In this document: positions 274-37,507 of the stretch, piece by piece | Numbering within the stretch: the stretch's first letter is position 1 | Layout: each line of letters opens with the position of its first letter | Notes under the pieces: generated by a model | Told to the model about the DNA's origin: nothing | Seen by the model: the letters and a program-made list of their open reading frames with translations, nothing else | Database searches by the model: none | Made by a program: the position numbers and the translations under genes | Virus record (IMG/VR): IMGVR_UViG_3300045988_157946 | DNA: 38,786 nucleotides | Source: a virus | Reading direction: 5' to 3' (one strand)

Positions 274-302
274 TTGACACATCACCCAATGAGTGATACA
301 AT
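274..302 (+). promoter_or_regulatory. Near-consensus sigma-70-type promoter of the attL-proximal cassette
   Basis: TTGACA (274..279), a 17-nt spacer, then TACAAT (297..302). The spacer contains the inverted repeat ATCAC..GTGAT. Confidence 0.65.
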
Positions 303-421
303 ATAATTGTTGAGAGGGAGAAGCGCTCTCGTTCTTGACAATATGGTGGCAAGTACCACTCATCGCACCTTTAATATAACACAATTAAGCAAAAAGGCAA
401 GATATATTTAAGGAGATTATT

Positions 422-913
422 ATGACTATCAAAGAAGCAAGATTGGCTAAGAATTTAACTCAACAAGCACTTTCGGAATACCTTGGCATTTCAAAAAGAA
501 ATATCGAAAATTGGGAAGCAGGCAAAAGAAAATGCCCTGATTGGTGTGAAAAGCTTATAATAGATAAAATTTTAAGCTACAACGCAAGCAATCAATACAC
601 CGTGATTTATGCAGACCGACAGGGCTTACACGAGATATTCAGTAGTGATGATTATAACGCTTGTGAAGAAGAAAGAATCAACTTTTCTAAAAAGATAAAT
701 CCGTCTGTCAAAGGAATTACTGAAGATTGTTATGTCGTAAGCAGGGCTGAGCAATGCCAAAATAATTTGCGAAATTCAGCATTAAATATATATTTGTCAA
801 AATTAACACCTGAGGAAAAAAGTGAGATTGTCGAAATTGACGGAAGGAAATTTAATAAAGCAGTAATGAATTTCGCTGAGCTTTTCAATAATATTATTGA
901 AAAGGATAATTAA
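422..913 (+). CDS. XRE-family HTH protein with an uncharacterised C-terminal domain of about 105 aa
   Basis: AAGGAG lies 7 nt upstream of the ATG. The N-terminus LTQQALSEYLGISKRNIENWEAGKRKCP is a Cro/C1-type HTH. I recognise no motif in the C-terminal part. Confidence 0.8.
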   Translation: MTIKEARLAKNLTQQALSEYLGISKRNIENWEAGKRKCPDWCEKLIIDKILSYNASNQYTVIYADRQGLHEIFSSDDYNACEEERINFSKKINPSVKGITEDCYVVSRAEQCQNNLRNSALNIYLSKLTPEEKSEIVEIDGRKFNKAVMNFAELFNNIIEKDN

Positions 914-924
914 AGGGTGTATTT

Positions 925-1527
925 ATGAATATTATTCACATCGATGAAAAATCATATAGTCAACTAATGACTTGGAAAGCTGAAAATCACGAATTAATCA
1001 AAGCAGTATCTCCTTATAGCCGTTACTATTTCGAAAAAGTTCAAGTTGATTTTGGAATTTATCCTAATAATAATGGCAAATTGCTTGTAGCATATTTTGA
1101 GAAAAAGCACGATTATTTAGAATTTCGTGTTAAATATGACAAAGTGCAAATTGCCAAAGGCAAAATAGAAGCTGCACCTGAAGGAATTAACGACTACGGC
1201 ATTCATTACCGATTAAACGACAGCGTTGATAATAGCGACAAGATTCAGCACATTCTTTATATGATAGTCGAAAGCTATATTTCTGTTAACGCATTAATTA
1301 TTTATGGTAATCTTGTTGACGGTTCTTCGACGACCGTCAGGTCAAGAAGTGAGGATAATGATAAGCATTATTTCGTTAAGAAATTTCAAAACAAACTGTA
1401 TGCCATTACTTCGCATACTCACCGTTCCCCTGAGGGAGTATTTAGTGTAAGAGGACATTTTCGCAAATATAAAAGCGGAAAAGTAATATGGATAGACGAA
1501 TTTTTAAAAGGCAATAAAGAAAAATAG
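925..1527 (+). CDS. Hypothetical 200-aa protein, second gene of the cassette
   Basis: It starts 11 nt after the upstream stop and has an AGGGTG RBS-like element. There are no TM segments. The C-terminus is basic (SVRGHFRKYKSGKVIWIDEFLKG). I recognise no catalytic motif. Confidence 0.7.
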   Translation: MNIIHIDEKSYSQLMTWKAENHELIKAVSPYSRYYFEKVQVDFGIYPNNNGKLLVAYFEKKHDYLEFRVKYDKVQIAKGKIEAAPEGINDYGIHYRLNDSVDNSDKIQHILYMIVESYISVNALIIYGNLVDGSSTTVRSRSEDNDKHYFVKKFQNKLYAITSHTHRSPEGVFSVRGHFRKYKSGKVIWIDEFLKGNKEK

Positions 1528-1534
1528 CAAAACA

Positions 1535-1570
1535 GAAACGCCCTCAGCTCATACGAGCCGAGGGCGTTTC
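1535..1570. terminator. Bidirectional hairpin terminator between convergent genes
   Basis: GAAACGCCCTCAGCTC-ATAC-GAGCCGAGGGCGTTTC forms a 16-bp stem with one mismatch. A T-rich tract follows on the - strand. Confidence 0.7.
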
Positions 1571-1643
1571 TAATGAGATACGTAGTTTTTGGTATCGGAC
1601 TACGTGTTGTTATAATATCAATTATATTATGCTTTGTCAATAA

Positions 1644-2778: not shown

Positions 2779-3086
2779 ATCATCACCTCGGCTTGCTGTT
2801 GTTTTTCGATTTCTGCCTTTGCCTCAGGCGTAACTTCTCGCCAATTATCGGCAGAGAGCAAAGGCTCTGTGCCCTCCAACTCTCTGATTTTTGCACGGAG
2901 TTTTTCCGTGTAGGCTATCTGCTCTTGATATTCTTCTACAGTTGCAACTCCCATAGCAATTTTTACGCCTATGTAATCATAGCTTGCAAGCTCCTGCTTT
3001 AGTGCTTGAATTTCAGCCTGTGGGTCAGGTGTAAAGATTTCATCTTTGACATCAAGATATTCACCATTAATTAATGCTCTACTCAT
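2775..3086 (-). CDS. Hypothetical protein downstream of the tail fibre (start re-assigned to an internal Met)
   Basis: AAGGAGAG lies 9 nt upstream of the ATG at 3086. The longer track ORF (to 3182) would overlap the fibre gene by about 100 nt. Confidence 0.6.
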   Translation of the reverse strand: MSRALINGEYLDVKDEIFTPDPQAEIQALKQELASYDYIGVKIAMGVATVEEYQEQIAYTEKLRAKIRELEGTEPLLSADNWREVTPEAKAEIEKQQQAEVMI

Positions 3087-4116
3087 TTGCTGCCACTCTC
3101 CTTTTCGCCCATATGCGTATTCTCGTTCCGGGATTAAATACCGAAGTGTCAACATCAAAATAAATCCCAATTGTATCATCAACCGCTTGAAAAGCCTGCA
3201 TCGCTCCGTATCTAATTGCTTTTTGGCTGCTCTTTACTCCCACATAACTGTAGTTCACAATTACATCTTCGTTCATTTTCTGTGCGTGAATAACAGCAAG
3301 AACGTGTGATGACAATTTATCAACATATATGTTATGTGCGCCCCAAAGTATTGAGCGTAGAAAACCACTTGTAGAATGGTTTATCTGTATAAAATCATCG
3401 TTGGTAATTTCTATATGCACTTCAACTGCGTTTTTTATTTCATATTCGATTTTATTTACTTCCTCTTGCACCGTAGTATCTACTGCCAACTCCCACTTTT
3501 CGGATGAGCCTTGCGGTCCTTGTATTCCTGTGTCACCCTTTGGTCCTTGTTCGCCCTGCGGTCCTGTGTCACCTTTTGGTCCTTGTTCACCCTGCGGTCC
3601 TGTGTCACCTTTTTCGCCTTTAAGTTCGCCGTTCGCAAGCTTTGTTTCAAGCATTTCGGATATATCATTAGCTCGCTTAGTAGCCTCTTGTGATTTAACC
3701 GTTTCACTCGCAAGCGCCGAATAATCAGACATTGAGGTTATCCTATTTTCGTCGGTGAGCACGTCATACACCTCTATATTAAATCTCGGTGTAGTTAAAA
3801 GCTGAGCGCCTGCTGCATTTGAATCGTATATCCTCAATTCACACTCAACAGTACCTGCTGCCGTAATAAGCTGCTTTTCGACGTCAACAATAGCCATTCC
3901 GTTTTCAATAGCGCAATCCTTATATATCACATTACCGTCAGTCTTTTTGCCATATATTGTAGCAATCATATCACCGCCAAGTATAAAGGCTTTTCCGCCG
4001 TCGGTAAGGGATATAACTATCCTTCTTGAATTAACATCATTTAGCTTAACGTCTATGCTCCATTGTGCACCGCTTTTTTGCAAATCAAGAGATTTTCGAT
4101 AAACTTGTTTTTCCAT
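3079..4116 (-). CDS. Tail fibre / receptor-binding protein: BppU-N-like domain, collagen-like Gly-X-Y stalk and C-terminal head domain
   Basis: The N-terminal pattern [41 protein letters not shown] matches my recollection of the BppU N-terminal domain. The stalk is [37 protein letters not shown]. Confidence 0.75.
3527..3613. repeat. 36-bp tandem repeat (about 2.4 copies) encoding collagen-like [12 protein letters not shown] units
   Basis: Units at 3527..3562 and 3563..3598 differ at about 2 positions. A partial third unit follows. Confidence 0.85.
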
Positions 4117-4180: not shown

Positions 4181-7100
4181 TTATTTGAGCCAATATTTAT
4201 TTATATAATTAATAACATCCGTTCTATTACCATACAATCCTGTTTTCGTCATTATAGTAATTATCTTAGCTTTTTCATCAGCATTACCGTTAATGAATTT
4301 CGCTTTATATTGATTGGCAATAGAAGTTCTGATACCAAAAACGGCATTATCCTGCGTCATACCGTTAGCAACTTTAGCCTTAATTCTGTTATCAACATAA
4401 TTACGAATGTTCTTGGTATCGTTTGACTTAAACGCTTCAACCATTGCCTCGGTATTATAAGACGACGCTTCCCAATTTGTAAAATCCTCATCATCAAAAT
4501 AGCCTGTTGATTCAAGTTTAGTTTTAATTTGACTGCGTTTTGAATTATCCGCAGCTAAATATTCTTCCTTAAAAGCACTCTTTAATGATGATTTTATGCT
4601 TCTTTCGGCCTCTGTCTTTGTCTTGCCGTTGCTTATATCGGTTGCAATATTGCCGTCAATAACAGTTTTCAAAACCGATTTATCACCGCTGTTTAAAGCG
4701 TTTATCAAGTCAGTTTTGTTATAAAGCTTACTGTCTTTGCTATCCTGTTCCTCGTCAATCTCGACCATATCAATTGCTTTTTTGACAGTTTCCTTATCCG
4801 TTCCGCTTGATATAAGCGTTTCAAGCGATTGCTTATATTTTTTGTCGTCGCTGTCCGCCTTATATCCTGCTGCCTTTTGAATTTCGGAAGAATAGGCTTT
4901 AATTGCTTTATAGGCAATCTCGTAGTCAAAGCCGTCGCTTTCAAGCTCTTTAGCGGTATTAATTGCCGTGCCAATATCTCCGTCAAGATATGCAAGGCCT
5001 GCTGTAGCAACTCGCTCGTCATTTTCTATCAATCCCTTCTTGATATAATTATCGGGATTAGAAACATTATCGGCAATGCGCTTATACATGTCCTTGTTGC
5101 CGTCCTTAATTGCCTCATATATCATTTGTTGCTTGTCTTTTTCAGGAAATAGGTCAAGGCCAAATACAGCAAGCACATCATCAGTAAGTAAAGCCTCTTT
5201 AATTTCCGATTGTGTAGCTTCTTTTGCCATTGAAGGATTGAAACTGTTTCCATTCTTTGCACCTTTGATAACATTTTCCACGCTGTTAATATCACGAATT
5301 ACGTTTTTTATCGGCAAGCCGAAAAATGCGCCAATCGAGCCGGCAAGACTTTCAATTTTTTGTGTATAGGTAAGATTGTCACTATTCAGATTGTGAATTG
5401 AATTATACAAATCACTAAACACCGACATATCTGCCCTTGTCACATCATAGCCTTGGAATACAGATATAGCGTCTTTAAGAAAGGCTATTTGATTAACAGG
5501 GTTAGCATTGTCAATAAAATTAGGAATAAGCTCAGCAATATATTTTTCAGCATACGTTTTATCGTCATCATCATTACGTGCGGCGGTTACAATTGATTGA
5601 AGAAGAGCGTTTATAACACTTGCAATAACAAGTGAAGCAACAATTCTCGTGGCCTTTTTCTTGCTAAACTTTCCACGTTTTGCCTGAACGGTTGCATTGA
5701 AAAGCATATTAAGTGAAGTAGTCGGCTCTGCCATAAATGCAGTTGCCATTTTAACGGCGCCGTTTTTACTCCTCATTAAAGCCGAACGTGAAAATACCGA
5801 ATCATATACCTGTGTTTTTGTTATAACCTCAGTAAATCGTTCGCCGGCCTTTTGCAAACTTTCCTCTGTTGATAAATCAGGATATTTATCCTTGGTTTCC
5901 GCCTTGCAGGCATTCCAAATGTGAGACCAGGTTATTTCGTCAGCCTTTGAAGCCACATATCCAAATACCTCATCACGAAACGCTCCGTCCTTAAAAAATG
6001 CCGCAATCTTTTCCTTACCCTTATAATCAATATTATTAAGATAATCAATCGTACTTTGCGCCATGTTAGTATCAAAATATCCCATTTCCTTAATAATAGC
6101 AACAGGAGCATATTTCTTTATTTCCTCATAACTGCGCTTCGTAAATGTAGTTTTTGCGAAATATTTGGTATCAATGATTGATAACGCTCTGCCTATTGCC
6201 GACGGCTGCTGAATTGCAACGGAAGCGGAAGCAAAAACAGCATTTTTCTTGAACATACTTGTAAGTTTATCAACAATATCCGAGCCTGCTTCATGCACGA
6301 CACCGCCGTTAAGGTCCTCAAGCAAATCGCTTATATATCCTGTTGCCTTCTTACCGTATGCATTTTCCACTAAAGTTCTGATAGAACTAAACTCGTCGCC
6401 GTTGCTCGAATGATAATTATAAACCCGGTCGAAATTTTCAAGCGGTAAAGCAAAGGCATTATAGCTTGCCATTTCATCAACGTGGCTCGCCCATACGTTG
6501 TCAAATTCTTCAAGTAAAAGCGGATTTTTTGCTTTTTCAACAATCGCATTAGTAAAGCCTGAATTAATGATTTTTTTAGCGCCAATAGTTTCCATACTGC
6601 TTCTGTGCATGTAGTTTTTAGCGGTACGTGCAGGATAATAATTTTCTTCCTTAAAAAGTTCAACGTCATATAGCCGTCTTGATATCTCGTTGCCCTTTTC
6701 CGCCATATCGGTTGAAAGATATTTAACCATGTCACGAACATAATTCCTTTGTTCGTCGCTTAGCATTGACCTGATTTTTGATATATCCGAATAACTGAGC
6801 CTGTGAGTTAAACTGTCATTCCACTTTGAGCTTTTATCCTTAAGCGTTTGAATAGCACTTTTAGGCTTATCAGTCACTACAATACCGCCATGGATAATAT
6901 GATTAAGCGTTTGCTTTCGATTGCTCATTGCATATATCGCCATTATCTGTTCAAGGTTTAAATTAAGCTTGTCGCCTAATGAAGTTGTTATATCATAACG
7001 TTTCTTCCTATCCCAGCTTTTCCAATCGTATTTTTCTCTGACATCATCAGCGTAATTTTTGCTGTTGTCTATCGTAACCGCCCATGTGTCCTCACCTTTT

Positions 7101-10100
7101 CTGACATCACGGTAAAGTTTAAGCAACTCATCACTGCCAAGATATTCAAAAAAGTATTCCGGTTTCATAGAGCCGTATTTAATTGAATCAATAATACCCT
7201 TGTCTATCTTATACTTTGCATTTACTTGTTTAAGTTCTTCCTCAACCTTAGAAACACTCTGTTCGATAGTTTTATTTCTTTCGGAATAGAATATCTTATT
7301 AACATTATTGCACACTTGAACAGTTGTGCGCACAAGGTCATCCACCATTTTAAGCTCGTCAAGTGTCAATTGATTAGCATTCCTGTCACCAATCATTGTT
7401 TGCAACTGTTCAATATAGTTTTTGATATATCCGTTATATGCTTCGGTCACCTTTTCGTAATCGTCATTATTATTCAGCGATTTAAAACTGCGGTCGAGTG
7501 CATAAAGCTTTGAATATATTTTATCATCAAGCTTAGTACCAAATGATATAACATTTACTATTCCTTTGACTGCTTCGACAATATTATTAGGAATATGATT
7601 TTTCTTATCCTGCTTTGCAAGCTGTGCAAGTCTAATTGTGCTTTTTTGAAAGCTCTTATAAAGCAGACTGCGCTCACGCTTTTCTTTCTGCTTTTGCCTA
7701 TATTCAGCCTTATACTCAACTGTATCTCTATATAAGTTCGACCTATAATCTTGATTTTTCTTTATCTGCTCTTTGCGAAATTCAGAAAATTCCTTTTTAT
7801 GCTTTGCTTTTTCGTCAGCAAGCAGCTTTTGATAGTTGCTTATTTGCTGAGCATATTTCGACCTTGCTTTTAAAAAGCGCTTTTCGTTTTTATCCGCCTT
7901 GGTCTCATAAAGATTAGTCTTGAAATAATAAGAAAGAATATCATTAGCAAGGCTTTCGAGATATTCTTCCTTGCTGTAGCCGTAATCGTTTTCAATAATC
8001 TTATTTTTATAAGTATTAACCATATCAAGAAGCGCAATCGGCATATCCTGCGAATTGTCACTTGGCATTAATCCGCCAAATAATTCTTCCATTTCATTAG
8101 CCAAATCGTCAAGCGGTATACCATTTTCGGTAATGTTAATCTTTCCTCTTGCCGCATTCTTATACTTGCCGTAAGAGCCGAAATAATACGAAACCTCTTC
8201 CTTTTGCTTATCGGATAGCTTAATTTCTGTGTTCTTCAAATAATCAAGCATTTCCTGTTCTTCCTGCGTAGGCTGATACTTAATCTGCTTTTCGTTTTCA
8301 ACAAGCTTTTGTGCAAGGTCGTATGCAGCGTTAAAGAATTGCTGAGAAGTGTCGAGCGTGTGCCAGCTTTTCATTTCCTTAGCCACGTCAACGCCTGTCA
8401 TACGTGTAGGTGTAAGCTTAATGATTTTTCTTGCCGCAATTAATAACGAGTTCGTACTTACTTCCCTGCCGTTAGTAAGCTCAAATTGGTGCTTTAAGAC
8501 CTCATTGATTTCCTTAAGGTGCTTGTTTTCACGCTTAAGCTCTGCATACTCGGAATAGTCTACGTCTCGGGAGTATCTTTTTTTGCTTGTGTTATCATTA
8601 TCAGCATTTTTCCGATATCCGAATCCGTCACTTTGCCTTTCTGCTTGAAGCGTTTTTCTATTGAATGAATCAATATTTCCTGTTGTTCTTCCGTTTCTAT
8701 TGCTGCTAAGGCTTCTGCTATTGTATCTTTCGGAAGTTTCAAGTAATCCAGATAGTCTATTATCGTTTTTTGCTTTTCCGTGAACTCCATAATCATCCAA
8801 TCCCTTCAAATAATCTTCAATATTATATCTGCTGTAATATGTAATACCATTTTCATTGTATACAAAACGATATTTATAATCACCATAATTTATACTTCTT
8901 AACTCGTTAGAATATTTGTTTGCATATCTTGTTGTAATTGCACTTGATACAACAGCATATTCTTTTTTTCCAAGTCTGATTTCATTATAATCCGTATCAT
9001 CAAACTCGTCAATATTAACATCACGAGAAAATCTAACATCTTCAATTGAATTAACAACATCAAGTCGGCTCTGCTCGTTATTTGCTTTATATTCTGCATA
9101 CGAAACGCCTGCATTTTTTAATGCATTTTTCAACTTTTGACTTGCATTGTCAGGAATAACAGCAGTATATACTTCGTTAAAATAAACGGCTCTTTGCGGT
9201 TTTGCTTCAAAATAACTCGTTGGCAATGCACGAATATCATTAACGAGGGTCCAAATATCATCAACCGCCATATCACTGTAATTAGCCCAGCCTTTAAGCT
9301 CGGTTTTCAAATAATTTGCAAGCCCTGATTTTGTTTCTGTTTTTGCAACGCCGTCAACGATAATATCAGCCACAGCAAATGGGTTATCGTTTTTTGTCAT
9401 ACTTTGGGCAATTTCTTGAAATCTTTTATAAAGATTATTACGTATTTGATTGTATTCTTCATCATTAACATTTTGAAGTCGTGATTTATCATTTCTCACT
9501 TCATCAAGATTGTTATATTTCTTCGCTGAGCCACCGATTATATTGCTGACGAGAAAATTGCCACCCTGAGCATTTTGATTATTCATTGCCTTAACGATAT
9601 TTTCAAGGTTATAATCCCAATACAGACTTTCCCAATTCTTTCGATTACCGGATTCGGTAAAAGGGTCATTGCCTTTCCAAATACCCTTTTTCTCTACAAC
9701 GCCGTCAAATAAATCATTAAGCCAGCTTTCATATTCCTTTTGATTAATTTTATTATCAATAAGATTATGTGTTGCCTCATCATCTGAAACGAGTTCAACT
9801 TTTTCAGCTCCGTTTTTCAAATAATCGATAGCCTTTTTCACAAAAGCTTTTCTTTGAAACGCCGTCTTAATTTCATCCGAATTGTTGAAAATGTTATCTA
9901 TGTTCTCATCACTTATACCGGGAATTAAGGATTTATAGTAATCGGCGATTGATTGTTTTATCTTGCTATCGTATCTTTCAACCCATAATTTGCTCGGAAG
10001 CAACGGTTTGTTCTCAATTTCCTGAAGCGTATCTTTTATATTATCATTAAGAAAATCGAAAACGTCAGTATCTTCGCTTGTAAGAGTTGTTTTCTTTTCT

Positions 10101-13100
10101 CTTTGAACAATATCTCTAACCGGCTCAGACTTGTCTGCCAAATATAGCTCCTTTAAAGCATAATCATTTTTATACTTATTAACTAATTCGGCAATACTTC
10201 CTGCGCTGTCAACTTGGTCTTTGAAATTATCAGGCTGAAATAATGAAGCATTAGGCTTATATGCAAGTTTTTGCTTTACAAGATTGTTTATTTTGCTATA
10301 TAAATCCCATGCTTTCTTTTCATTAAGTTTGTGTTCGGCTTTAACTGATATCGGAGTATAAGCGTCAGAAGAATAAACCTTATTTGCATTACTTTCTTGT
10401 GGGTCAATAGTCTTTTTATCAAAAACAAGTGATATATCACCAAACTCATTATTTGCGCTGATATTTTGTGCTTTCATTATTGCTATCGACGGACTTGGTA
10501 AACCACCGAGTTCTAATGCACTGAGCAGTTTACTTTCGGTAGTATTATGAATTGCAACAAGTTCCTTTGCTTCCTCAATAGGTATATCAAGTGAAAATTT
10601 TGTTTCATTATTATTGACATTTGAAGAATTATTTGCTATATTATCTATGCGAGACAAGTCGTAACTATTATAACCTCTGGATTCTTTATCCTTTGCGTTC
10701 AGTGAGACTGTCTCGTTTTTATTTTGCAAATTCATATTATGAATATAAAACTTATTTTCAACAGGCGTTTTCTTTATTTTTATTTCAACATTATAATTTT
10801 CGCCGTCAACTATAGCAGGATGATTAAGTACCAAAAACGAACTACCCTCTTTTGAGTGGTAGTTTTTTTCATTTTCATTAACCACCTCTGCATATCTAAT
10901 CATATCTGGTAAGCTGTCAATAACAGCTATTTTTGCAGTTTTTATTTTACGTGGCAATGAAAAATATCGCTTTTCTGTAGATAATGTTTCTCTGATCCCG
11001 TTTTTAGTTATTGAAACAACAATATCCGTATCTGCATTTACAACAATATTTTTATTGTTTTGATTGAAAAAGTTATCGTTATCAAGAGTTGATATAACTC
11101 TTTTTTGAATATACACAAAATCATTAAGCGCATTTGCTGTATTTGATATGCCGAACTTTTCTAATTTCTCGTTAGAATTAATATCAACATCAGCAAATTT
11201 ACCTAGTGTCACGGAATTTTTAGTGTTTTCCTCAACCTCGGTACCGTTATAAAGATTATTGCTTGCATTATCGAGCATATCGAGAAACTGCTTGCGAATA
11301 TGGTCGGCTCTCTTTTGCTCCATTTCCATAGCGTTCCTTGCAGCCGTCTGCAAATTAGAAGTAGCAATCACACTTTTAATTTTTTCAATAACAGACTTAA
11401 GGAAATCTGCGATTGTTTCAATAATGCTTTTCTTTTCAGCTTCGGTTTTGTTGTCACTAAGCCACTTTGCAAACTGCTCAACGCCCTCATCCGTAGAAAA
11501 GAGACCCGATACAGCGTCGTTGGTAAGCTCGTCTATTGCCTCTGCTCTTGTTTTTGACCCCTCAGCCTTAGTATATGTATCGATATAAGCGTCAACAAGA
11601 GAGTTAAAATTATCTGCGCCCTTGTAGCTGACATACCAATCACGAATAGCGGCCTGCACGTTTTTGTATTCCTGCTCATTATAAGCAAGCCCAAACTCGC
11701 CAAGTTCGTGAATAAGTGCATTATACTCACCGCTACCGTCTGCATTAATGATAATTTTAGCAAGCGACGGAATAAACTGACCGTTTCCGCCCTGTCTGCC
11801 GTCGGAGTGTCTTTCAATATCCACTCTTGTTTTCCTTGCAACCTCGGTAAAGACATCATCAATCGTACTGTCACTGTCAGAAATATTCTTGTATTCACCT
11901 TCAATATGCCTTGTGGCTTTTGTAGGTGATTTTTTATTTTTTCTCTGCTCCTCAATATAAGCGTCATAGCTTTTAGCGTCTGTTTGTCCCGAACGGTAAA
12001 TATTAATCGCTTTGTCGCCGAGGAATTTAACGGCAGGATAAAAAGCCGGGTTTCTCATAACGAATTCATTAAACGGCACATCAGGCTTTGCAACGCCCAA
12101 ATCATAAAGCATTTTTGCCTGAGATACATACGTACTTACACTTGCGCCCTTTAAATTATTCGGGTCAAAATTGACATAAACGGCATTTGCCCCGGAGTTA
12201 CCGAAGTTTTTATTTATAATTTCATTTGTCAGGACCTGCTGCGTTTGATTTTTGAACGAAATATTGTTGTAATCAATGTCGCCGGCTGAGGTTTTAACCT
12301 TGAAATTACTGCGGTCGGCGCTGACCTCAAATGGGTGCTTGCCATAGATTTTTACCGCCGCTTGATTTCCGTCTGCCGTAATAGCAACAGCATTAACATT
12401 ATATTTAAGGTCGTTGCTCTGTTGTTCTGCTGTGAACGTTTCTGCAGGCTTTTGCGTATATTCCGATACGTTTGTTGTGTTTTCCTCTAAAGCGGCATTT
12501 TGAGCATTTTCTGCCCTGGGCTGATACTTGCTGTAGCCGCCATAAGTAAAGCTATAATCTGTATAGCCGTTCTTAAGCTTAGCCGACAATGCTTCAAGCG
12601 AATCGTTGCTGATATCTTTTTCAGTAAAGTCTGAGCCGAACTGTTCATTTATGGCATTAATAGCTTTTTCACTATCCTTAATCACCTTGACATCATATCG
12701 GCTCAATTCAAAGCCATTAACCATTTTGCTTATGGCCTTATTTATTCTGTCCTCGTTTTTTTCGCCCTCAATTGCCGTGGCAATGTTTTCCTTGAAGCCC
12801 TCTTTCACTATCTCTGTTTGAAGCTGTCCGAGCCTTTTTTCATTAATCTTACTGTAATCAGCTTCATCATAAATAGAAGCGCCGGCAAGTACATCACCGT
12901 TTGCTTGACTTGTCTTAACCTTTGCCTGCAATTCCTCGGCATACTTATATGCCTTACTGTTTTTATTCTTTGAAAGCCCCTCGTCTATAATCGCCTGAAT
13001 ATCGCTGTTGCTTTGTGCTTTTGCTTCTGCGCCGAGCTTTTTATTATCGATATTATTTTGTGTGCTTTCAATAATCTTGTTCGGTGCAATTTCGCTACCT

Positions 13101-14812
13101 GACATAACAGCGCCGGCAAAGCCTGCCTGCAAGGCGGCGAAGATATCCTCGGCAAGCATAGACTTAACAACCTCTTTGTCTGCCTCTTGTTCACTCAAAC
13201 CTTGTTCAAGATAGCTTCTTTTAAGCTGCGAAAGCTCGCTTAATTGTCCCTGTGTAATTTGGTCGTACGTTCTGTCAACAACATTACCGATAATTTCCTC
13301 TGTGCCCTCATTAAGTCCACTCACAAGAATTTTACCGAATGTGCTGTTTCCCTTGACGTCCGCCCATTCAAGCGGAGCGCCAACCATTTCCGTAAGGAAG
13401 TTAATTAATGCGCTTTTCACGCTGCTTTTAATCGTTTCACCCGAAGAACTTCCGCTTGCAAGCTGTGAAGACATATCATCGCCCATAGCCGCCGTACTGA
13501 ATACGCCGTTAATAAGTGCTTGTTTTGCCTTTTCTGCCTTACCCGAAGCGGTAATACCGCCTGTTATTCCGCCGCCAAAAAGTAATGAATTGTAAACATT
13601 CTCTGCCATTTGGTCTATGTTATCATATAGCGCCGCATTAACATTACCCATATTGTTGCCGAGAATTTCAATTTCGTTATTCTTATTGACGCTTATAGGG
13701 CCTATTTTTTTGCCGGCAAGATTGATAAGTCCGTCATTTGCTGCCTTATCTTCAAGTCCTTTTCGTGTGCCGTACGCTGCATTCGTAATAAAGTCCGCCG
13801 TGCCGTTAATACTGCTTTTACCGTTCACCGCCATATCAATGGTATTTGCTATATTCGCCTGCGCTCTTAAAGGGGAAGTAAGCGTTCTTGCTGCCTGCAT
13901 TATAACCGGGTGCTCCTGTGCCGCTTTTTCAGCGCCTTTTATAACCTTTGCCTGCTGCTCATTGTTTTTATTAGCAACATAATAATCAATCAAGTCCTCT
14001 GCCTTGATATCCTTATATCCTTTCTTGTTAATAAGGCTTTGAAGTTCTTTGAGTGAATCATTATATTTTTTGCTATAGTCAACGTCATTTTGACCCTTTG
14101 AGCCTACACCCATAGCATTAAGCATAGCACTGCTCATATCATCAGCGCCCGAAGCCTTGCTTTTCTCGGCAATTGCATTTCTATATCTGTATGCCTGCTC
14201 TGCTTTTTTTGATATTTCATTATCTTTGCTTAAAGCGTTCTTGTTTTTAGCTGCCGTTTCTTCTCTTGCTTTTTGCTTAATGTCAGCGTCGTATGCCTGT
14301 TGCTCATAAGCCTCTTGCTTAGATTTATTATAAATCTGCTTGACTTCATTTTTCCGCTCAGCGTCATACGGATTTCCGTACAAAGTCTCGCCGACTTTGC
14401 CTATTTCACTCATAAGTAAATTTTTCTTTTGCTTACTGCCGTTTAATGTCTCATACTCCTCCTTAAGCTTATCGTATGCACTCTGCTTTTTCTCTTTTTC
14501 CTTTTGAGCAGATTTATAGTTTTTCTTTGCCTCGGAAGCGGAAATACCGTCGGCAGGATTAATTATATTTAATATAGCCTTAAGCTGGCTTTTCCTCTCG
14601 TCATTAATTCCTTTCTTTTGCTCGTTTTTATAGGCCTTAGTGTTTTTAATATAATCATCATAATAAAGCTTATACGTATTTGCAGATACATTGCTGCGGT
14701 TATTCTTTGCGCCCTCATACATAGAACGAGAGTATTCGTATGCGTCCTTTTTCTGCTTTTCTTCATCACGCTTTTTAGCTTTTTTTCTTAATGTATCAAA
14801 ATCAATTGCCAT
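4181..14812 (-). CDS. Giant (3,543 aa) modular virion-associated protein; candidate internal/ejection 'polyvalent' protein
   Basis: The ORF is uninterrupted. The likely start is the ATG at 14812, with a GAGG core 5 nt upstream (the track begins 2 codons earlier at a GTG). It sits between internal-protein-like genes and the tail fibre. It has Gly-rich hydrophobic segments, an LIHELGEF segment (11693..11710) and multiple distinct sequence modules. Confidence 0.7.
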   Translation of the reverse strand: MAIDFDTLRKKAKKRDEEKQKKDAYEYSRSMYEGAKNNRSNVSANTYKLYYDDYIKNTKAYKNEQKKGINDERKSQLKAILNIINPADGISASEAKKNYKSAQKEKEKKQSAYDKLKEEYETLNGSKQKKNLLMSEIGKVGETLYGNPYDAERKNEVKQIYNKSKQEAYEQQAYDADIKQKAREETAAKNKNALSKDNEISKKAEQAYRYRNAIAEKSKASGADDMSSAMLNAMGVGSKGQNDVDYSKKYNDSLKELQSLINKKGYKDIKAEDLIDYYVANKNNEQQAKVIKGAEKAAQEHPVIMQAARTLTSPLRAQANIANTIDMAVNGKSSINGTADFITNAAYGTRKGLEDKAANDGLINLAGKKIGPISVNKNNEIEILGNNMGNVNAALYDNIDQMAENVYNSLLFGGGITGGITASGKAEKAKQALINGVFSTAAMGDDMSSQLASGSSSGETIKSSVKSALINFLTEMVGAPLEWADVKGNSTFGKILVSGLNEGTEEIIGNVVDRTYDQITQGQLSELSQLKRSYLEQGLSEQEADKEVVKSMLAEDIFAALQAGFAGAVMSGSEIAPNKIIESTQNNIDNKKLGAEAKAQSNSDIQAIIDEGLSKNKNSKAYKYAEELQAKVKTSQANGDVLAGASIYDEADYSKINEKRLGQLQTEIVKEGFKENIATAIEGEKNEDRINKAISKMVNGFELSRYDVKVIKDSEKAINAINEQFGSDFTEKDISNDSLEALSAKLKNGYTDYSFTYGGYSKYQPRAENAQNAALEENTTNVSEYTQKPAETFTAEQQSNDLKYNVNAVAITADGNQAAVKIYGKHPFEVSADRSNFKVKTSAGDIDYNNISFKNQTQQVLTNEIINKNFGNSGANAVYVNFDPNNLKGASVSTYVSQAKMLYDLGVAKPDVPFNEFVMRNPAFYPAVKFLGDKAINIYRSGQTDAKSYDAYIEEQRKNKKSPTKATRHIEGEYKNISDSDSTIDDVFTEVARKTRVDIERHSDGRQGGNGQFIPSLAKIIINADGSGEYNALIHELGEFGLAYNEQEYKNVQAAIRDWYVSYKGADNFNSLVDAYIDTYTKAEGSKTRAEAIDELTNDAVSGLFSTDEGVEQFAKWLSDNKTEAEKKSIIETIADFLKSVIEKIKSVIATSNLQTAARNAMEMEQKRADHIRKQFLDMLDNASNNLYNGTEVEENTKNSVTLGKFADVDINSNEKLEKFGISNTANALNDFVYIQKRVISTLDNDNFFNQNNKNIVVNADTDIVVSITKNGIRETLSTEKRYFSLPRKIKTAKIAVIDSLPDMIRYAEVVNENEKNYHSKEGSSFLVLNHPAIVDGENYNVEIKIKKTPVENKFYIHNMNLQNKNETVSLNAKDKESRGYNSYDLSRIDNIANNSSNVNNNETKFSLDIPIEEAKELVAIHNTTESKLLSALELGGLPSPSIAIMKAQNISANNEFGDISLVFDKKTIDPQESNANKVYSSDAYTPISVKAEHKLNEKKAWDLYSKINNLVKQKLAYKPNASLFQPDNFKDQVDSAGSIAELVNKYKNDYALKELYLADKSEPVRDIVQREKKTTLTSEDTDVFDFLNDNIKDTLQEIENKPLLPSKLWVERYDSKIKQSIADYYKSLIPGISDENIDNIFNNSDEIKTAFQRKAFVKKAIDYLKNGAEKVELVSDDEATHNLIDNKINQKEYESWLNDLFDGVVEKKGIWKGNDPFTESGNRKNWESLYWDYNLENIVKAMNNQNAQGGNFLVSNIIGGSAKKYNNLDEVRNDKSRLQNVNDEEYNQIRNNLYKRFQEIAQSMTKNDNPFAVADIIVDGVAKTETKSGLANYLKTELKGWANYSDMAVDDIWTLVNDIRALPTSYFEAKPQRAVYFNEVYTAVIPDNASQKLKNALKNAGVSYAEYKANNEQSRLDVVNSIEDVRFSRDVNIDEFDDTDYNEIRLGKKEYAVVSSAITTRYANKYSNELRSINYGDYKYRFVYNENGITYYSRYNIEDYLKGLDDYGVHGKAKNDNRLSGLLETSERYNSRSLSSNRNGRTTGNIDSFNRKTLQAERQSDGFGYRKNADNDNTSKKRYSRDVDYSEYAELKRENKHLKEINEVLKHQFELTNGREVSTNSLLIAARKIIKLTPTRMTGVDVAKEMKSWHTLDTSQQFFNAAYDLAQKLVENEKQIKYQPTQEEQEMLDYLKNTEIKLSDKQKEEVSYYFGSYGKYKNAARGKINITENGIPLDDLANEMEELFGGLMPSDNSQDMPIALLDMVNTYKNKIIENDYGYSKEEYLESLANDILSYYFKTNLYETKADKNEKRFLKARSKYAQQISNYQKLLADEKAKHKKEFSEFRKEQIKKNQDYRSNLYRDTVEYKAEYRQKQKEKRERSLLYKSFQKSTIRLAQLAKQDKKNHIPNNIVEAVKGIVNVISFGTKLDDKIYSKLYALDRSFKSLNNNDDYEKVTEAYNGYIKNYIEQLQTMIGDRNANQLTLDELKMVDDLVRTTVQVCNNVNKIFYSERNKTIEQSVSKVEEELKQVNAKYKIDKGIIDSIKYGSMKPEYFFEYLGSDELLKLYRDVRKGEDTWAVTIDNSKNYADDVREKYDWKSWDRKKRYDITTSLGDKLNLNLEQIMAIYAMSNRKQTLNHIIHGGIVVTDKPKSAIQTLKDKSSKWNDSLTHRLSYSDISKIRSMLSDEQRNYVRDMVKYLSTDMAEKGNEISRRLYDVELFKEENYYPARTAKNYMHRSSMETIGAKKIINSGFTNAIVEKAKNPLLLEEFDNVWASHVDEMASYNAFALPLENFDRVYNYHSSNGDEFSSIRTLVENAYGKKATGYISDLLEDLNGGVVHEAGSDIVDKLTSMFKKNAVFASASVAIQQPSAIGRALSIIDTKYFAKTTFTKRSYEEIKKYAPVAIIKEMGYFDTNMAQSTIDYLNNIDYKGKEKIAAFFKDGAFRDEVFGYVASKADEITWSHIWNACKAETKDKYPDLSTEESLQKAGERFTEVITKTQVYDSVFSRSALMRSKNGAVKMATAFMAEPTTSLNMLFNATVQAKRGKFSKKKATRIVASLVIASVINALLQSIVTAARNDDDDKTYAEKYIAELIPNFIDNANPVNQIAFLKDAISVFQGYDVTRADMSVFSDLYNSIHNLNSDNLTYTQKIESLAGSIGAFFGLPIKNVIRDINSVENVIKGAKNGNSFNPSMAKEATQSEIKEALLTDDVLAVFGLDLFPEKDKQQMIYEAIKDGNKDMYKRIADNVSNPDNYIKKGLIENDERVATAGLAYLDGDIGTAINTAKELESDGFDYEIAYKAIKAYSSEIQKAAGYKADSDDKKYKQSLETLISSGTDKETVKKAIDMVEIDEEQDSKDSKLYNKTDLINALNSGDKSVLKTVIDGNIATDISNGKTKTEAERSIKSSLKSAFKEEYLAADNSKRSQIKTKLESTGYFDDEDFTNWEASSYNTEAMVEAFKSNDTKNIRNYVDNRIKAKVANGMTQDNAVFGIRTSIANQYKAKFINGNADEKAKIITIMTKTGLYGNRTDVINYINKYWLK
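8560..8796 (-). CDS. Possible nested 78-codon ORF in the +1 frame of the giant gene
   Basis: It reads as a balanced helical protein (EFTEKQKTIIDYLDYLKLPKDTIAEALAAIETEEQQEILIHSIEKRF..). AAGGGA lies 4-5 nt upstream of its ATG. The host frame here is an S/R/N-rich low-complexity linker. Confidence 0.3.
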   Translation of the reverse strand: MIMEFTEKQKTIIDYLDYLKLPKDTIAEALAAIETEEQQEILIHSIEKRFKQKGKVTDSDIGKMLIMITQAKKDTPET

Positions 14813-14823
14813 AATCACACCTC

Positions 14824-31593: not shown

Positions 31594-33270
31594 TCACCCT
31601 GCTGCTACTGCGTTAAATTCTTTCATATTGTCGCAAGATTTATCACACAGCCATTTACAATTTGCCATAACAAGCGCTTTTGAAAACGGCGGCGGTACTG
31701 CGTTACCGCACCTTGCTACTTGCTTTGTCTTGTTATATTCCTTGCCGTTGCAATCCTTATCAATGATATAATCATCCGGGAACCCCTGCGCCTTGTATAA
31801 TTCTTTAGGCTGCAGCATTCTCAGTCCGATATCAGATATAAAATACTCAACTCCGTTAATACAGAAAATAAGCACCTGATTAGCTGATATATTCCAATCT
31901 GTGTAGGTGTTGAGCAACTCTCTTATCTCATTCCAATGACCGAGGTTTTTACTATCGTATTCTCTCAAATAAACATCCGTCTTTGCAAAGTGATTTGCGT
32001 GAGCTGTTATAGTGGGAAGCGGCTCATTAATAGCTTTACAGTCCATATTTTTGCGGAGTATAGTTATATAGCTTTCGCATAAGAAATGCCGAGGCTTAAC
32101 AGTTACTGTTTGCAAAGGATTTAAAACGCTGTTAGCGTGGTCTGCACCGCCGTAATACTGAGTTAAATATGGCATAGTCAGCGAATTATGGTCTATTGCC
32201 GTAACGGTTGGTAATGGTTTATCAATTTTGCTGCCGACAACACCGCCAAAGTATTTAGAAAGATACGGTGTAAAAAGAGCATATCTCGGTGAGCCGTCGA
32301 TTGTATAAATAGGTTGATTGAGTTGTTGACCTCTCACTTCCGATTTAGCCGTTTCGCTGTGATATTGAATTAATGCAGGAGAAACAAGATATTGCTTGCA
32401 GCTGCTTACTATCGTTGTAAGCGGCTTGTCTATATCCTGCAAGCGTGGCTTTTGACCTTTTCGCTCGCCGTAGCCGATAGGAATGATAAATGGCTTTTCT
32501 TCCTTAATCACAAATTTTTCAAGTCCTCTTGCGATTCGTCTTAAAGTATTCGTTACAAGCGGCTTTTTTCGCTCAAAAATGCTTTGAGCAGGCAAAGAAA
32601 AATCTATACAGTCGGCGGCGGTTTTCCATGGCTTAAGCTTGCCACTCTTAACTTCTTCGCTATTTGGGTCACCATGTGTAGGCTTCGGGAAAACTATAGG
32701 TTCACCGTCACACCTCGCTACAAGAAAGAATCGCTTTCTTATAGTCGGCGCACCATAGTCACAAGCTCTCAACTCTCTATGCTCAATCTCATATCCGAGT
32801 GCCGAAAGTTGACTTTTCCAACGTTCAAATGTTTGACCCTGCTTTGACTTAACCGGCTTACCTTTGCGTACAGGGCCCCAAGTCTGAAACTCTTCTACAT
32901 TTTCAAGAATAATAACCCTCGGTCTTACCGTTCCTGCCCATTTGAGGACAATCCACGCAAGCCCTCTTATATTCTTATCGACAGGCTTACCGCCTTTAGC
33001 CTTGCTGAAGTGCTTGCAGTCAGGAGAAAACCAAGCAAGTCCTACCTTATGACCTTGGCATATTTCCTTTGGGTTAATATCCCATACGCTCTCTTGATAA
33101 TGACGAGTGTACGGATGATTTGCTTTGTGCATTGCAATGGCGTCCGGGTCGTGGTTAATAGCTATGTCAACAGGTCGCCCTGTTGCGAGTTCAATTCCGC
33201 AGGAAGCACCACCTCCACCTGCAAAGTTGTCAATAATCAATTCATCAAGAAAGTTTAACTGTCCTTTCAT
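31594..33270 (-). CDS. dcm: DNA (cytosine-5)-methyltransferase
   Basis: Motif I DNFAGGGGAS, motif IV SPDCKHFSKAKG, motif VI ILENVEEF, and C-terminal QGFPDDY and CGNAVPP. Confidence 0.85.
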   Translation of the reverse strand: MKGQLNFLDELIIDNFAGGGGASCGIELATGRPVDIAINHDPDAIAMHKANHPYTRHYQESVWDINPKEICQGHKVGLAWFSPDCKHFSKAKGGKPVDKNIRGLAWIVLKWAGTVRPRVIILENVEEFQTWGPVRKGKPVKSKQGQTFERWKSQLSALGYEIEHRELRACDYGAPTIRKRFFLVARCDGEPIVFPKPTHGDPNSEEVKSGKLKPWKTAADCIDFSLPAQSIFERKKPLVTNTLRRIARGLEKFVIKEEKPFIIPIGYGERKGQKPRLQDIDKPLTTIVSSCKQYLVSPALIQYHSETAKSEVRGQQLNQPIYTIDGSPRYALFTPYLSKYFGGVVGSKIDKPLPTVTAIDHNSLTMPYLTQYYGGADHANSVLNPLQTVTVKPRHFLCESYITILRKNMDCKAINEPLPTITAHANHFAKTDVYLREYDSKNLGHWNEIRELLNTYTDWNISANQVLIFCINGVEYFISDIGLRMLQPKELYKAQGFPDDYIIDKDCNGKEYNKTKQVARCGNAVPPPFSKALVMANCKWLCDKSCDNMKEFNAVAAG

Positions 33271-35794: not shown

Positions 35795-36232
35795 ATGGAT
35801 ACAAAAGATATATTAAAAAGCAAACGTAAAGAGCTTAATTTAAGTCAAAAAGAAGTTGCCGACTACGTAGGTGTAAGTGAAGCCACCGTTTCTCGTTGGG
35901 AATCAGGTAACATTGCAAATATGGGTAGAGATAAAATAGCATTACTTTCCAAAATATTAAAATTATCACCAAGCGTGATAGCCGGCTATGCAGATATAAA
36001 CGATTTTGAAACACCTTTTATATTAACTAAAGAGGAAAAAGAATTAGTAACTGCATACCGTAACAAACCTGAAATGCAATCAGCAGTAAACACTCTTCTC
36101 GGAATCAGTAATAATTCACAAAGAACAGTTGAATATCCTATGGCTGCACGTACTAATGCTAAAAAAATAAAACTCTCAGCGCAGGAAGTTGAGAGCTTGA
36201 AAAAAGCTAAAGAATATAATGAGGATATATAG
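35795..36232 (+). CDS. CI-like XRE-family repressor without a peptidase domain (ImmR-type)
   Basis: N-terminal HTH LSQKEVADYVGVSEATVSRWESGN. 145 aa with no S24 Ser-Lys domain, and followed by immA. Confidence 0.8.
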   Translation: MDTKDILKSKRKELNLSQKEVADYVGVSEATVSRWESGNIANMGRDKIALLSKILKLSPSVIAGYADINDFETPFILTKEEKELVTAYRNKPEMQSAVNTLLGISNNSQRTVEYPMAARTNAKKIKLSAQEVESLKKAKEYNEDI

Positions 36233-36305
36233 TTTATTATAATTACCAATATTTACCTGTATAATTTATTACTGCAAACATTTAAAATGTTTGTGGTGAT
36301 GAAAA

Positions 36306-36887
36306 ATGATAAATTATGGAAAATACAAATACGTACGCAACGCTTCATGGCAAGTCCTTTTAGATTATAACGTAAGGCAATTGCCGGTAAAAATAACCGA
36401 TATCGCAAAACAAGCCGATATTAAAGTTGTAAAAAATAGTGATTGTCATCTCCTCAAAGATAATCAAATAGGGTTAAGCATACTTATAGACAGCAAATGG
36501 TATATTGTTTTCGACGATAATATGTCATCAGAAAGAGCACGATTTACTATTGCACACGAACTCGGTCATATATTCTTGGGCCACATATCCTTGCTTAACA
36601 GAAGCGAAAGCGATAATGAATATAAAGAAAAGCCTGAAGAAGAAACACAAGCTGATATGTTTGCCGCTCGGCTACTTGCACCGGCTTGTGTCCTTTGGGG
36701 GCTTCACTTACATAGCGCAAATGAAATTTCGCAGATATGCAACATTTCTTATCAAGCCGCTACATACAGAGCGCAACGTATGGAATTGCTTTATAAGCGA
36801 AATAAGTTTTTAACAAGCCAATTAGAAAGAAAAGTTTATTCAAACTTTGAGGATTTTATAAAACAATATAATAAGGGGATAAAATGA
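36306..36887 (+). CDS. immA: ImmA/IrrE-family (M78) zinc metallopeptidase, anti-repressor protease
   Basis: HEXXH motif in FTIAHELGHIFLGH. The gene order repressor-then-protease is the same as in ICEBs1 ImmR/ImmA. Confidence 0.8.
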   Translation: MINYGKYKYVRNASWQVLLDYNVRQLPVKITDIAKQADIKVVKNSDCHLLKDNQIGLSILIDSKWYIVFDDNMSSERARFTIAHELGHIFLGHISLLNRSESDNEYKEKPEEETQADMFAARLLAPACVLWGLHLHSANEISQICNISYQAATYRAQRMELLYKRNKFLTSQLERKVYSNFEDFIKQYNKGIK

Positions 36888-37507
36888 AAGACGAATATAA
36901 TTTAACTGAGCAAGAATTATTGTATAAGCTCGCTACTGAAAACGGTTCATATATTTCTAAAAATACTTTTGAAAAAATAAAATCATCTATGCGAAAGGTT
37001 GATATCAATGTCGGTATATATGAATTTAGTATAGATACGTCACGTAATTTTAATAATTATGCAGCATACTATGTTGTTGAAAATAGCGGAAATGGCAGAG
37101 GTCATCTTTTTTGTGCAGATAGCACTAATGTTTGTGAATTTATACACAACGGTGAAGAACTGTATTTATATAATTGCAGCTATCAATTAAAAGAAAAGGA
37201 AAAATTAAACAACAATGCAAAACAAATACTCGGCATAATTCTTTCATTAATAATTCTATTATGTGCATCGTTTGCACTCGGACCGTTATACGGAAAGCCT
37301 CGTATTCTTCTCGCAGGTCCTATTGCTTTGATAGGAATTTATCAAATAGCCAAATGGCTAATTCCCAACTTCACTGATAAAATATCACTTAAAAAGGATG
37401 ATTATCAAAAAGCACTTTATGTATCATATACTATCGGTCAAAATGACAAAGAATTAGAAATCAATGTAAGAAATAAGAGAGATAAATATTACGAAGAACA
37501 GAGATGA
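36884..37507 (+). CDS. Two-TM membrane protein of the lysogeny operon (superinfection-exclusion/defence candidate)
   Basis: 207 aa. ATGA overlap with immA. It has a soluble N-terminal domain of about 110 aa and two TM helices (ILGIILSLIILLCASFALGPL and ILLAGPIALIGIYQIAKWLI). Confidence 0.65.
   Translation: MKDEYNLTEQELLYKLATENGSYISKNTFEKIKSSMRKVDINVGIYEFSIDTSRNFNNYAAYYVVENSGNGRGHLFCADSTNVCEFIHNGEELYLYNCSYQLKEKEKLNNNAKQILGIILSLIILLCASFALGPLYGKPRILLAGPIALIGIYQIAKWLIPNFTDKISLKKDDYQKALYVSYTIGQNDKELEINVRNKRDKYYEEQR

Follow-up and report, generated by a model that had tools for sequence, protein, structure and literature searches.

A self-contained accessory cassette with a promoter-embedded palindrome, a helix-turn-helix protein and variable cargo in phages of gut Clostridia

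The viral genome IMGVR_UViG_3300045988_157946 of the IMG/VR collection (38,786 nucleotides; hereafter the window, that is, the whole stretch of DNA that was analysed) is a complete prophage that carries, at one end, a two-gene cassette consisting of a promoter with an embedded palindrome, a gene for a helix-turn-helix (HTH) protein of the XRE type (gene 1) and a gene for a 200-amino-acid (aa) cargo protein (gene 2). The cassette is a mobile unit, its promoter and presumed operator recur together with the HTH in many related loci, and the cargo varies from locus to locus, with gene 2 as the commonest occupant of this chassis. Of ordinary design, it is best classed with the autorepressed accessory operons of phages, and its cargo belongs to a family of unknown function, phrog_10678 of the PHROGs collection. 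Our preferred reading, to which we assign a probability of roughly one half, is that of a mobile, insulated, self-repressed accessory operon whose payload serves in conflict between phage and host or between phages, anti-defence or host takeover being its most likely role.

Organization and mobility of the cassette

The elements of the cassette, in window coordinates, are as follows.

139-164 (unstranded): small terminator-like hairpin 5' of the cassette, from a hairpin scan
274-302 (plus strand): sigma-70 promoter with an extended -10 TG; TTGACA, 17-nt spacer, TACAAT; 11 of 12 positions
281-297 (unstranded): presumed palindromic operator of 17 bp, ATCACCCAATGAGTGAT, inside the promoter spacer
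343-363 (plus strand): leader hairpin, marking the left limit of the leader segment with 100% conservation (357-421)
422-913 (plus strand): gene 1, XRE-type HTH plus an unknown domain, 163 aa; Pfam HTH_3 (PF01381)
925-1527 (plus strand): gene 2, cargo, 200 aa; phrog_10678
1533-1572 (unstranded): terminator hairpin of 18 pairs, common to the cassette and the convergent lysin gene; right-hand border of the cassette

A lysin protein identical to that of the window is found on 24 contigs, which fall into two types. The first (L212) is 100% identical to positions 1-1800 of the window, whereas in the second (L207-L211, L213 and L214) the tail, holin and lysin genes are the same, with the match of the tail genes judged by layout and Pfam domains, and the cassette is missing. 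In these cassette-less prophages, homology to the window ends at the outer edge of the terminator hairpin (position 1530), beyond which lie genes of the host. Because prophages with an identical lysin do without it, the cassette is a true moron, acquired or lost as a whole. This direct evidence bears out the initial annotation of the window, made from the sequence, which had recognized between the lysin gene and the attachment (att) site an autonomous moron-type unit with its own promoter.

The left border of the conserved mobile unit lies at about position 158: locus L094 is 92-96% identical to 158-303 of the window, and the flanks further upstream differ. The hairpin at 139-164 probably insulates the cassette on this side. 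On the right, the strong bidirectional terminator that had been proposed is confirmed in one direction only: the terminator scan scores the hairpin at 1533-1572 as a minus-strand terminator, that is, one for the lysin gene, but scores it only weakly for the plus strand because of a weak T-run on that side.

The presence or absence of the cassette among otherwise identical prophage ends is pertinent to two alternatives for the role of the payload. Under the first, a serious rival although the odds are clearly against it, the cassette would provide lysogen-protective defence or superinfection exclusion, such that gene 2, kept at a low level by the HTH, would act on incoming phage DNA, RNA or protein, with its N-terminal domain as the sensor. 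The polymorphism speaks for this possibility, as do the classic moron position between lysin and att, the separate promoter and the orientation convergent with the late genes. Under the second alternative, which we consider very doubtful, gene 2 would be a DNA- or RNA-binding factor of the phage's own early or late developmental programme, encoded in a displaced module. The dispensability of the cassette argues against such a role, since sister prophages with an identical lysin do without it.

The promoter and its embedded palindrome

The near-consensus promoter of the initial annotation is present exactly as described, with the -35 box TTGACA at 274-279, the -10 box TACAAT at 297-302 and a spacer of 17 nt, and it additionally has the extended -10 TG at 294-295. 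Its score is the joint best in a scan of positions 1-2600, together with a minus-strand site at 1640..1612. What had been overlooked is that the palindrome ATCACCCAATGAGTGAT occupies nearly the whole of the spacer between the -35 and -10 boxes. A search of the window that tolerated 2 mismatches found this single copy of the palindrome, against a chance expectation of 0.06 matches. The palindrome is presumed to be the binding site of the gene 1 HTH dimer.

The composite pattern TTGACA-YATCAC-N7-GTGATA-YAAT was found in 34 of the fetched loci (1.5 Mb searched), always 5' of the cassette, compared to one or two matches expected by chance according to a back-of-envelope estimate. In all 34 loci, the core ATCAC-N7-GTGAT sits in the same promoter, the -10 box is mostly the perfect TATAAT, and the palindrome is often more perfect than that of the window, for example, ATCACGCAATGCGTGAT. 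The promoter-operator is also present in loci where gene 2 is only about 35% identical to that of the window. All gene 2 cassettes with the strict promoter-operator (32/32) also have a homologue of the HTH, and given that the two are conserved together, the gene 1 HTH is most likely the autorepressor of the cassette.

The 5' leader is ~113 nt long, close to the 5' untranslated region of about 120 nt that had been estimated, and includes the ribosome-binding site (RBS) AAGGAG at 410-415. The final 65 nt of the leader are 100% identical to those of the nearest relatives, even though gene 1 is only 73% identical. The hairpin at 343-363 is the site where these relatives hold an extra open reading frame (ORF), described below. 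The fold of the leader is not significant (z = -1.7), and an Rfam scan of positions 1-1700 yielded sub-threshold noise only. The stem of the leader hairpin (GAGUGG/CCACUC in the relatives) resembles the half-site of the operator (GAGTGAT/ATCACTC); on a speculative note, this similarity recalls the binding of RNA motifs in anti-CRISPR (acr) leaders by Aca2 and Aca1.

The minus-strand site at 1612-1640 (TTGACA, 17-nt spacer, TATTAT and a TG; likewise 11 of 12) is located between the stop codon of the lysin gene and the terminator. It points into the hairpin and could yield an RNA of ~80 nt that ends at the stop of gene 2. The site is kept in the cassette-less relatives (L207) and may be a chance occurrence in AT-rich DNA.

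Conserved chassis and variable cargo

Among 75 related cassettes, counted separately from the loci that resemble that of Faecalibacterium phage FP_Brigit (see below), the HTH is encoded in 54, upstream of gene 2 in 15 and downstream in 39, and is missing in 21. The order in the clade with about 35% identity in gene 2 is promoter-operator, 2-3 small acidic genes, gene 2, an overlapping gene for an HTH of 62-64 aa, and then a convergent amidase lysin gene. The HTH of this clade is a bare DNA-binding domain, to which, in its 62-aa form, the N-terminal 50 aa of gene 1 are 60% identical. Thus, between clades in which gene 2 is about 35% identical and the gene order is reversed, the HTH is 60% identical. 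In at least 31 loci, the partner HTHs homologous to gene 1 are only 60-68 aa long.

An independent DNA-pattern scan of IMG/VR with the promoter-operator alone returned 33 loci, 23 of which contain gene 2, with the HTH called in 20 of these 23. In others of the 33, the HTH is accompanied by different cargo or is present only as a fusion. In locus L193 (IMGVR_UViG_3300045988_115842), the promoter-operator precedes genes for a protein of 170 aa, an HTH of 67 aa and a NUMOD3-like protein of 161 aa. HTH fusions whose second domains are unrelated are encoded in L190, L182 and L203, and the L203 protein has an N-terminus nearly identical to that of gene 1 in the window; in L179, a fusion of this kind comes after an 84-aa gene. 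Gene 2 is the commonest cargo of the chassis.

Some of the alternative or neighbouring cargo consists of Cys-rich proteins of ~150-160 aa (in L193 and in L015, 3099-3545) with NUMOD3 or treble-clef traces, and these proteins of L193 and L015 share the motif W.L.SPEG..Y.C.NL..F. They might be putative CapR/CasPR-like DNA binders; the CasPR anti-CRISPR proteins (Acrs) combine a Cys-rich CapR zinc finger with an AP2 DNA-binding domain (bioRxiv 10.64898/2026.02.23.707548). Gene 2 itself is not of the CasPR kind, having no cysteine and no AP2 match in Pfam.

Turnover is apparent also among the nearest relatives of the window cassette, in which gene 1 is 73% identical. In L083-L094, an acidic ORF of 41 aa (MADDMTNEQFDKF...; L083, 3250-3375), with a strong RBS and 15-bp inverted repeats on both sides, is inserted between the promoter and gene 1. 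In the window, this ORF has been deleted at a GCCA microhomology, with the leader hairpin at 343-363 retained. Some close relatives carry a second gene 2 paralogue, with a 123-aa gene between the paralogues (L083). In L076-L082 (for example, L079, 6013-6286), gene 2 is cut down to a 32-aa C-terminal remnant, and the overlapping gene for a 65-aa HTH is intact.

These observations bear on the possibility that the cassette is a type II toxin-antitoxin (TA) or abortive-infection (Abi) pair, in which gene 2 would be the toxin and the HTH of gene 1 the antitoxin and autorepressor, with the C-terminal domain of gene 1 as the neutralising part. The arrangement in the window, namely, an HTH with an extra 108-aa domain directly 5' of a 200-aa protein and a palindromic operator in the promoter, as at many TA loci, is suggestive of such a pair, and so are the reversed, overlapping gene order of the 35%-identity clade, which resembles higBA and mqsRA, the HTH genes retained next to the 32-aa remnant of gene 2 in some loci, and the presence of HigA-2 among the profile matches of the HTH. 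The pair, however, is not obligate, given that all 75 FP_Brigit-like loci and 21 of the 75 closer loci have gene 2 without the HTH, and the chassis bears other cargo. Furthermore, most of the partner HTHs are 62-64 aa long, which leaves no space for a neutralising domain; the C-terminal domain of gene 1 is restricted to two close clusters; the operons contain 2-3 further genes and, in some cases, two gene 2 paralogues for one HTH; and gene 2 has no toxin-family match in Pfam, PADLOC or the PDB, with Foldseek TM-scores of at most 0.36 and no acidic catalytic residues conserved across the family. We regard a TA or Abi system as doubtful: it is a possible reading but a poorly supported one, and not the best. 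Accordingly, the fixed pair of a regulator or antitoxin and an effector that the initial annotation envisaged is contradicted by the two-cluster distribution of gene 1, the variable cargo and the HTH-free FP_Brigit-like loci. The other half of that proposal, a conflict module of undescribed function that would be expressed in the lysogen, is tenable. No known system was recognized in Pfam, PADLOC, the PDB or NCBI phage records.

The HTH protein encoded by gene 1

Gene 1 had been described as an XRE HTH fused to an unknown domain of 105 aa, and this description is accurate in essence. Residues 3-36 match Pfam HTH_3 at 35.4 bits (gathering cut-off 23); the HTH is basic and spans aa 1-55, and the remainder is an acidic alpha/beta domain of 108 aa. 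When every ORF of the fetched loci was searched with this C-terminal domain (phmmer and jackhmmer), its own orthologues alone were retrieved, and among 5.8 billion proteins, those homologous to the whole of gene 1 form only two clusters. Scans of the proteins of both genes with Pfam, PHROGs and PADLOC returned, besides HTH_3, only the phrog_10678 match and the one marginal PADLOC match of gene 2 described below.

In a search against the PDB, the profile of the HTH produced generic XRE matches, including the HigA-2 antitoxin (3e-4), Aca10 (5e-4) and Aca3 (0.99), with ImmR comparable. The AlphaFold2 (AF2) model of gene 1 is poor, with a mean predicted local distance difference test score (pLDDT) of 63, and Foldseek found no significant match with this model, which is too poor for a meaningful fold search.

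The cargo protein encoded by gene 2

Gene 2 starts 11 nt after gene 1 and matches phrog_10678 with E = 5.4e-13, aligning aa 1-197 with profile positions 6-203 of 214; 82 of the 83 distant homologues of gene 2 match the same family. The homologues number 127 at 90% clustering, and an exhaustive profile search of 1.84 billion proteins collected 316 representatives at 50% clustering, nearly all of which are 190-230 aa long and share a single architecture. The large number of homologues (127 or 316 clusters), along with the recurring promoter-operator, indicates that the gene pair is beyond chance.

The initial description of gene 2 as a 200-aa protein with a basic C-terminal tail and no assignable motif is corroborated: the last 70 aa are strongly basic, with an isoelectric point of about 9.6-9.9, and the protein has no match in Pfam. 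Among 83 distant relatives, Pfam likewise found nothing but one fusion to RusA, and a search of PDB sequences with the gene 2 profile detected no relative. The AF2 model (pLDDT 78, predicted TM-score 0.73) includes a confident N-terminal domain (aa 1-128) with a beta-alpha-alpha-beta5-long helix topology, followed by four beta-strands with the hallmark motif of the family, HRSPEGVFSVRGHFRKYKSGKVIWIDEYLKG. The basic C-terminal beta region (aa 145-196) contains the near-invariant motif HRSPEGVFSVRGHFRKYKSGKVIWIDEFLKG. Across the family, V175 and G177 are invariant, and R176, H178, R180, G185, W189, K195 and G196 are nearly so, and distant members carry additional Lys-rich linkers and tails.

Neither Foldseek nor PADLOC, which the initial annotation had pointed to as routes to an identity, provided one. 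In the comparison of gene 2 with the PDB, Foldseek found no match at E <= 1e-3, only GNAT- and START-like noise with TM-scores of 0.2-0.36, and in BFVD, it found uncharacterised phage proteins only, the best being from Bacillus phage PBC2 (TM-score 0.48). The single match in PADLOC is to PDC-M04B (E = 6.4e-4; aa 100-196, the C-terminal half); this match is treated as chance or marginal, given that 0 of 48 relatives match at E <= 0.01. No acidic residue is conserved across the wide gene 2 family, which argues against a metal-dependent nuclease. A PD-(D/E)XK nuclease, an ADP-ribosyltransferase, a GNAT acetyltransferase and an AP2 protein were each considered and rejected for want of conserved catalytic residues or domain matches.

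Among the close relatives of the window cassette, the two paralogues of one cassette (L083, 3994-4602 and 5001-5603) are about 46% identical in their N-terminal halves and about 91% identical in their C-terminal halves. This pattern suggests either diversification of the N-terminal domain or gene conversion of the C-terminus. The fast-evolving N-terminal domain probably sets the specificity of the protein, and the C-terminal hairpin probably binds nucleic acid or docks on a conserved host machine. Diversification of the N-terminal domain would also suit a sensor, as posited by the defence alternative, and a basic C-terminal hairpin is compatible with a developmental regulator.

Spread of the gene 2 family

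Members of the gene 2 family are found only in phage settings of gut Clostridia, among them Eubacterium, Acutalibacteraceae, Oscillospiraceae, Ruminococcus and, through its phage FP_Brigit, Faecalibacterium. Species genomes (185,579 searched) yielded 11 loci and plasmids one partial match, so that the family is almost absent from both, whereas IMG/VR contains well over 150 loci. The relative in FP_Brigit, gp91, is 24% identical to gene 2. In all 75 FP_Brigit-like loci, the relative lies within an early plus-strand operon, and both the HTH and the promoter-operator are missing. As for co-occurrence, a survey of which the initial annotation called for, the HTH accompanies gene 2 in many of the related cassettes, in the proportion given above, and in 0 of these 75 loci.

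The most widespread gene 2 relative is that of the P0023 clade (L002-L009), found on 221 contigs. It forms a counter-oriented island between the small terminase gene and the resolvase and large terminase genes, 3' of the gene for an FtsK/SpoIIIE-like ATPase (396 aa) across a 536-nt gap, with neither the HTH nor the ATCAC-N7-GTGAT operator. Pfam searches with the neighbour genes of the FP_Brigit-like loci and with the alternative cargo were uninformative, with ASCH and NUMOD3 traces only.

This distribution is informative for the alternatives introduced above. Defence genes are normally found in chromosomal islands too, so that a family restricted to phages and present in early operons without the regulator, as in the FP_Brigit-like loci, would be unusual for defence. 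The weak PADLOC match of the window protein (E = 6e-4) would support defence, but it is missing in 48 of 48 relatives, and no known defence domain was found in the Pfam and PADLOC scans. The notion of a developmental regulator draws on the location of distant gene 2 relatives in the early or replication region, on the fusion of one of these to RusA and on the adjacency of the P0023 relatives to terminase genes. It is at odds, however, with the tandem paralogues and remnants of gene 2 and with the presence elsewhere in the prophage of the phage's own switch of the ImmR/ImmA type. A known phage regulatory module, which the initial annotation had weighed as the contrary explanation of the pair, also failed to appear, as neither Pfam nor PHROGs linked the cassette to any phage regulator already known.

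Relationships to known regulated systems

The operons that combine anti-CRISPR genes with aca (anti-CRISPR-associated) genes (Aca1, Aca2 and Aca10), and the bifunctional Acrs that contain an HTH themselves (AcrIIA1, AcrIIA15 and AcrIF24), resemble the cassette in having a strong promoter with a palindrome and a co-encoded small HTH regulator. The HTH N-terminal domain of AcrIIA1, a protein of 149 aa (PMC6538845), represses the acr promoter via a conserved palindrome inside the promoter (bioRxiv 10.1101/787200), and the Aca proteins follow a logic in which expression surges when the DNA enters and is then shut down (PMC13551039). Of the features of acr-aca loci, the cassettes show an HTH gene in the cargo operon and an inverted-repeat operator in the promoter, with binding being putative. 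In the 35%-identity clade, the HTH gene closes the operon on its 3' side, and in the 163-aa gene 1 of the window, the HTH is joined to another domain; both arrangements have counterparts among the acr-aca systems. The two also have in common that their cargo varies and is often small and acidic, that tandem turnover occurs and that they are restricted to phages and prophages. Nevertheless, there are differences: in searches of solved structures, the HTH of the cassette showed no specific sequence or structural tie to an Aca or an Acr, the match to Aca10 (7xi5) being at the generic XRE level; the HTH gene of the window stands first; and the main cargo is basic and 200 aa long. The likeness concerns how the cassette would work and not membership in a family. 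In Listeria, acr loci may also be situated between the lysin gene and att; this is background that carries no weight in the comparison.

Type II TA systems with XRE antitoxins (HigBA, MqsRA and Xre-RES) are similar in that an HTH gene is beside or overlaps the gene for a protein of ~200 aa and in that the promoter contains a palindrome. In contrast to these systems, the pair is not conserved in the cassettes, the HTH is usually a bare 62-aa domain, extra genes are present, and the cargo has no homology to toxins. Restriction-modification (R-M) operons regulated by C proteins also employ a small XRE HTH that acts on a palindrome in its own promoter and times a downstream gene after entry into the cell, and C.Esp1396I and C.Kpn2I are among the non-significant fold matches of gene 1. 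Unlike these operons, the cassette has no adjacent methyltransferase gene, and gene 2 does not have conserved acidic residues of the PD-(D/E)XK kind. The phrog_10678 locus of FP_Brigit differs from the cassette as well, being part of an early operon without the promoter-operator-HTH chassis.

A model of cassette function

Under the preferred reading, the strong sigma-70 promoter at 274-302 would fire once the DNA enters a repressor-free cell, and the XRE HTH dimer of gene 1, bound to the palindrome at 281-297, would subsequently keep transcription of the operon low and steady in the lysogen. Terminators on both flanks would shield the lysis genes and the host from transcription of the cassette. 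Gene 2 would be the payload, with the diverging N-terminal domain providing specificity and the basic C-terminal beta-hairpin engaging nucleic acid or a conserved host machine. Because the design is like that of acr-aca operons and of AcrIIA1, the payload is taken to act in phage-host or phage-phage conflict, and the restriction of the family to phages together with its location in early lytic operons makes us lean to anti-defence or host takeover. What is observed is the anatomy of the cassette, the conservation of promoter, operator and HTH and their occurrence together, the exchange of cargo, and the polymorphic presence of the cassette; that the HTH binds the operator and represses it, that gene 2 binds nucleic acid and which way the conflict runs are inferred.

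Several points weigh against this reading. In the PDB search, the HTH showed no specific homology to any Aca family, with the profile scores of HigA-2 and Aca10 about equal. Gene 2, at 200 aa and with its basic charge, is bigger and more basic than typical Acrs, and its most conserved part is modelled at low confidence (pLDDT 43-61). The site adjacent to att and the convergent orientation also suit genes for defence or lysogenic conversion that are expressed in the lysogen, and both the position and the presence/absence polymorphism fit a role in lysogen-protective defence equally well.

A more specific version of the preferred reading, which we put forward tentatively and with the odds against it, would have the chassis as an unrecognised Aca-like family of regulators of gut-Clostridia phages and phrog_10678 as a new anti-defence family, in which the hypervariable N-terminal domain targets a component of host immunity and the invariant basic hairpin (VRGHFRKY..GK.IWI) binds nucleic acid, in the manner of inhibitors directed at DNA or RNA, for example, the CasPRs.

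Significance

Hardly any of the accessory loci in phages of gut Oscillospiraceae and Ruminococcaceae have been characterised. The combination of TTGACA-YATCAC-N7-GTGATA-YAAT with a cognate HTH of 60 aa is a searchable signature that flags a hot spot of exchangeable cargo, and phrog_10678, with about 316 clusters at 50% identity, is a prime candidate for a conflict-related function. If the cargo is an anti-defence or defence effector, the signature could be used for guilt-by-association discovery, as has been done with aca genes; and if the Aca-like, anti-defence version is true, the chassis would be a handle to many further inhibitors in the human gut virome. If the cargo is neither, the cassette would still serve as a clean example, provided by nature in an under-studied phylum, of an expression module that is both insulated and autoregulated.

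Genomic context of the cassette

The window is bounded by exact copies of a 44-bp direct repeat (1-44 = 38743-38786), the first of which is at the cassette end:

1-44 (unstranded): prophage attachment-site repeat; tRNA 3' end read on the minus strand; identical to 38743-38786

ARAGORN called no tRNA in the window, since it holds only this 3' fragment of the tRNA. The tyrosine integrase is encoded at 37504-38580, next to the tRNA att site at the end opposite the cassette, so that the cassette occupies the integrase-distal end, whichever name is given to the att site. The initial annotation had placed the cassette at the attL end; its location beside an att repeat, with the lysin gene on the other side, is upheld, and the end itself is defined here as integrase-distal. 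As had also been noted, the cassette is convergent with the lysis genes: the CHAP lysin gene (1644-2507), between which and the att repeat it lies, and that of an XhlA-like holin are both on the minus strand. With a GC content of 0.33, the cassette is indeed more AT-rich than the prophage on average (about 0.39), but other segments of the prophage are equally AT-rich, so that its composition is not distinctive.

The lysogeny module (35795-38580) encodes an ImmR-like HTH protein of 145 aa, an M78/ImmA-type peptidase of 193 aa, a 207-aa membrane protein and the tyrosine integrase. The membrane protein has no match in Pfam and possibly plays a role in superinfection exclusion.

In the early region, a C-5 cytosine DNA methyltransferase of 558 aa is encoded on the minus strand at 31594-33270, and no adjacent endonuclease was noticed. 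A single ORF of 3545 aa spans 4181-14818 on the minus strand; its relatives contain the LPD3 (large polyvalent protein-associated) domain. It is followed, at 3079-4116, by the gene for a baseplate protein with BppU_N and collagen repeats.

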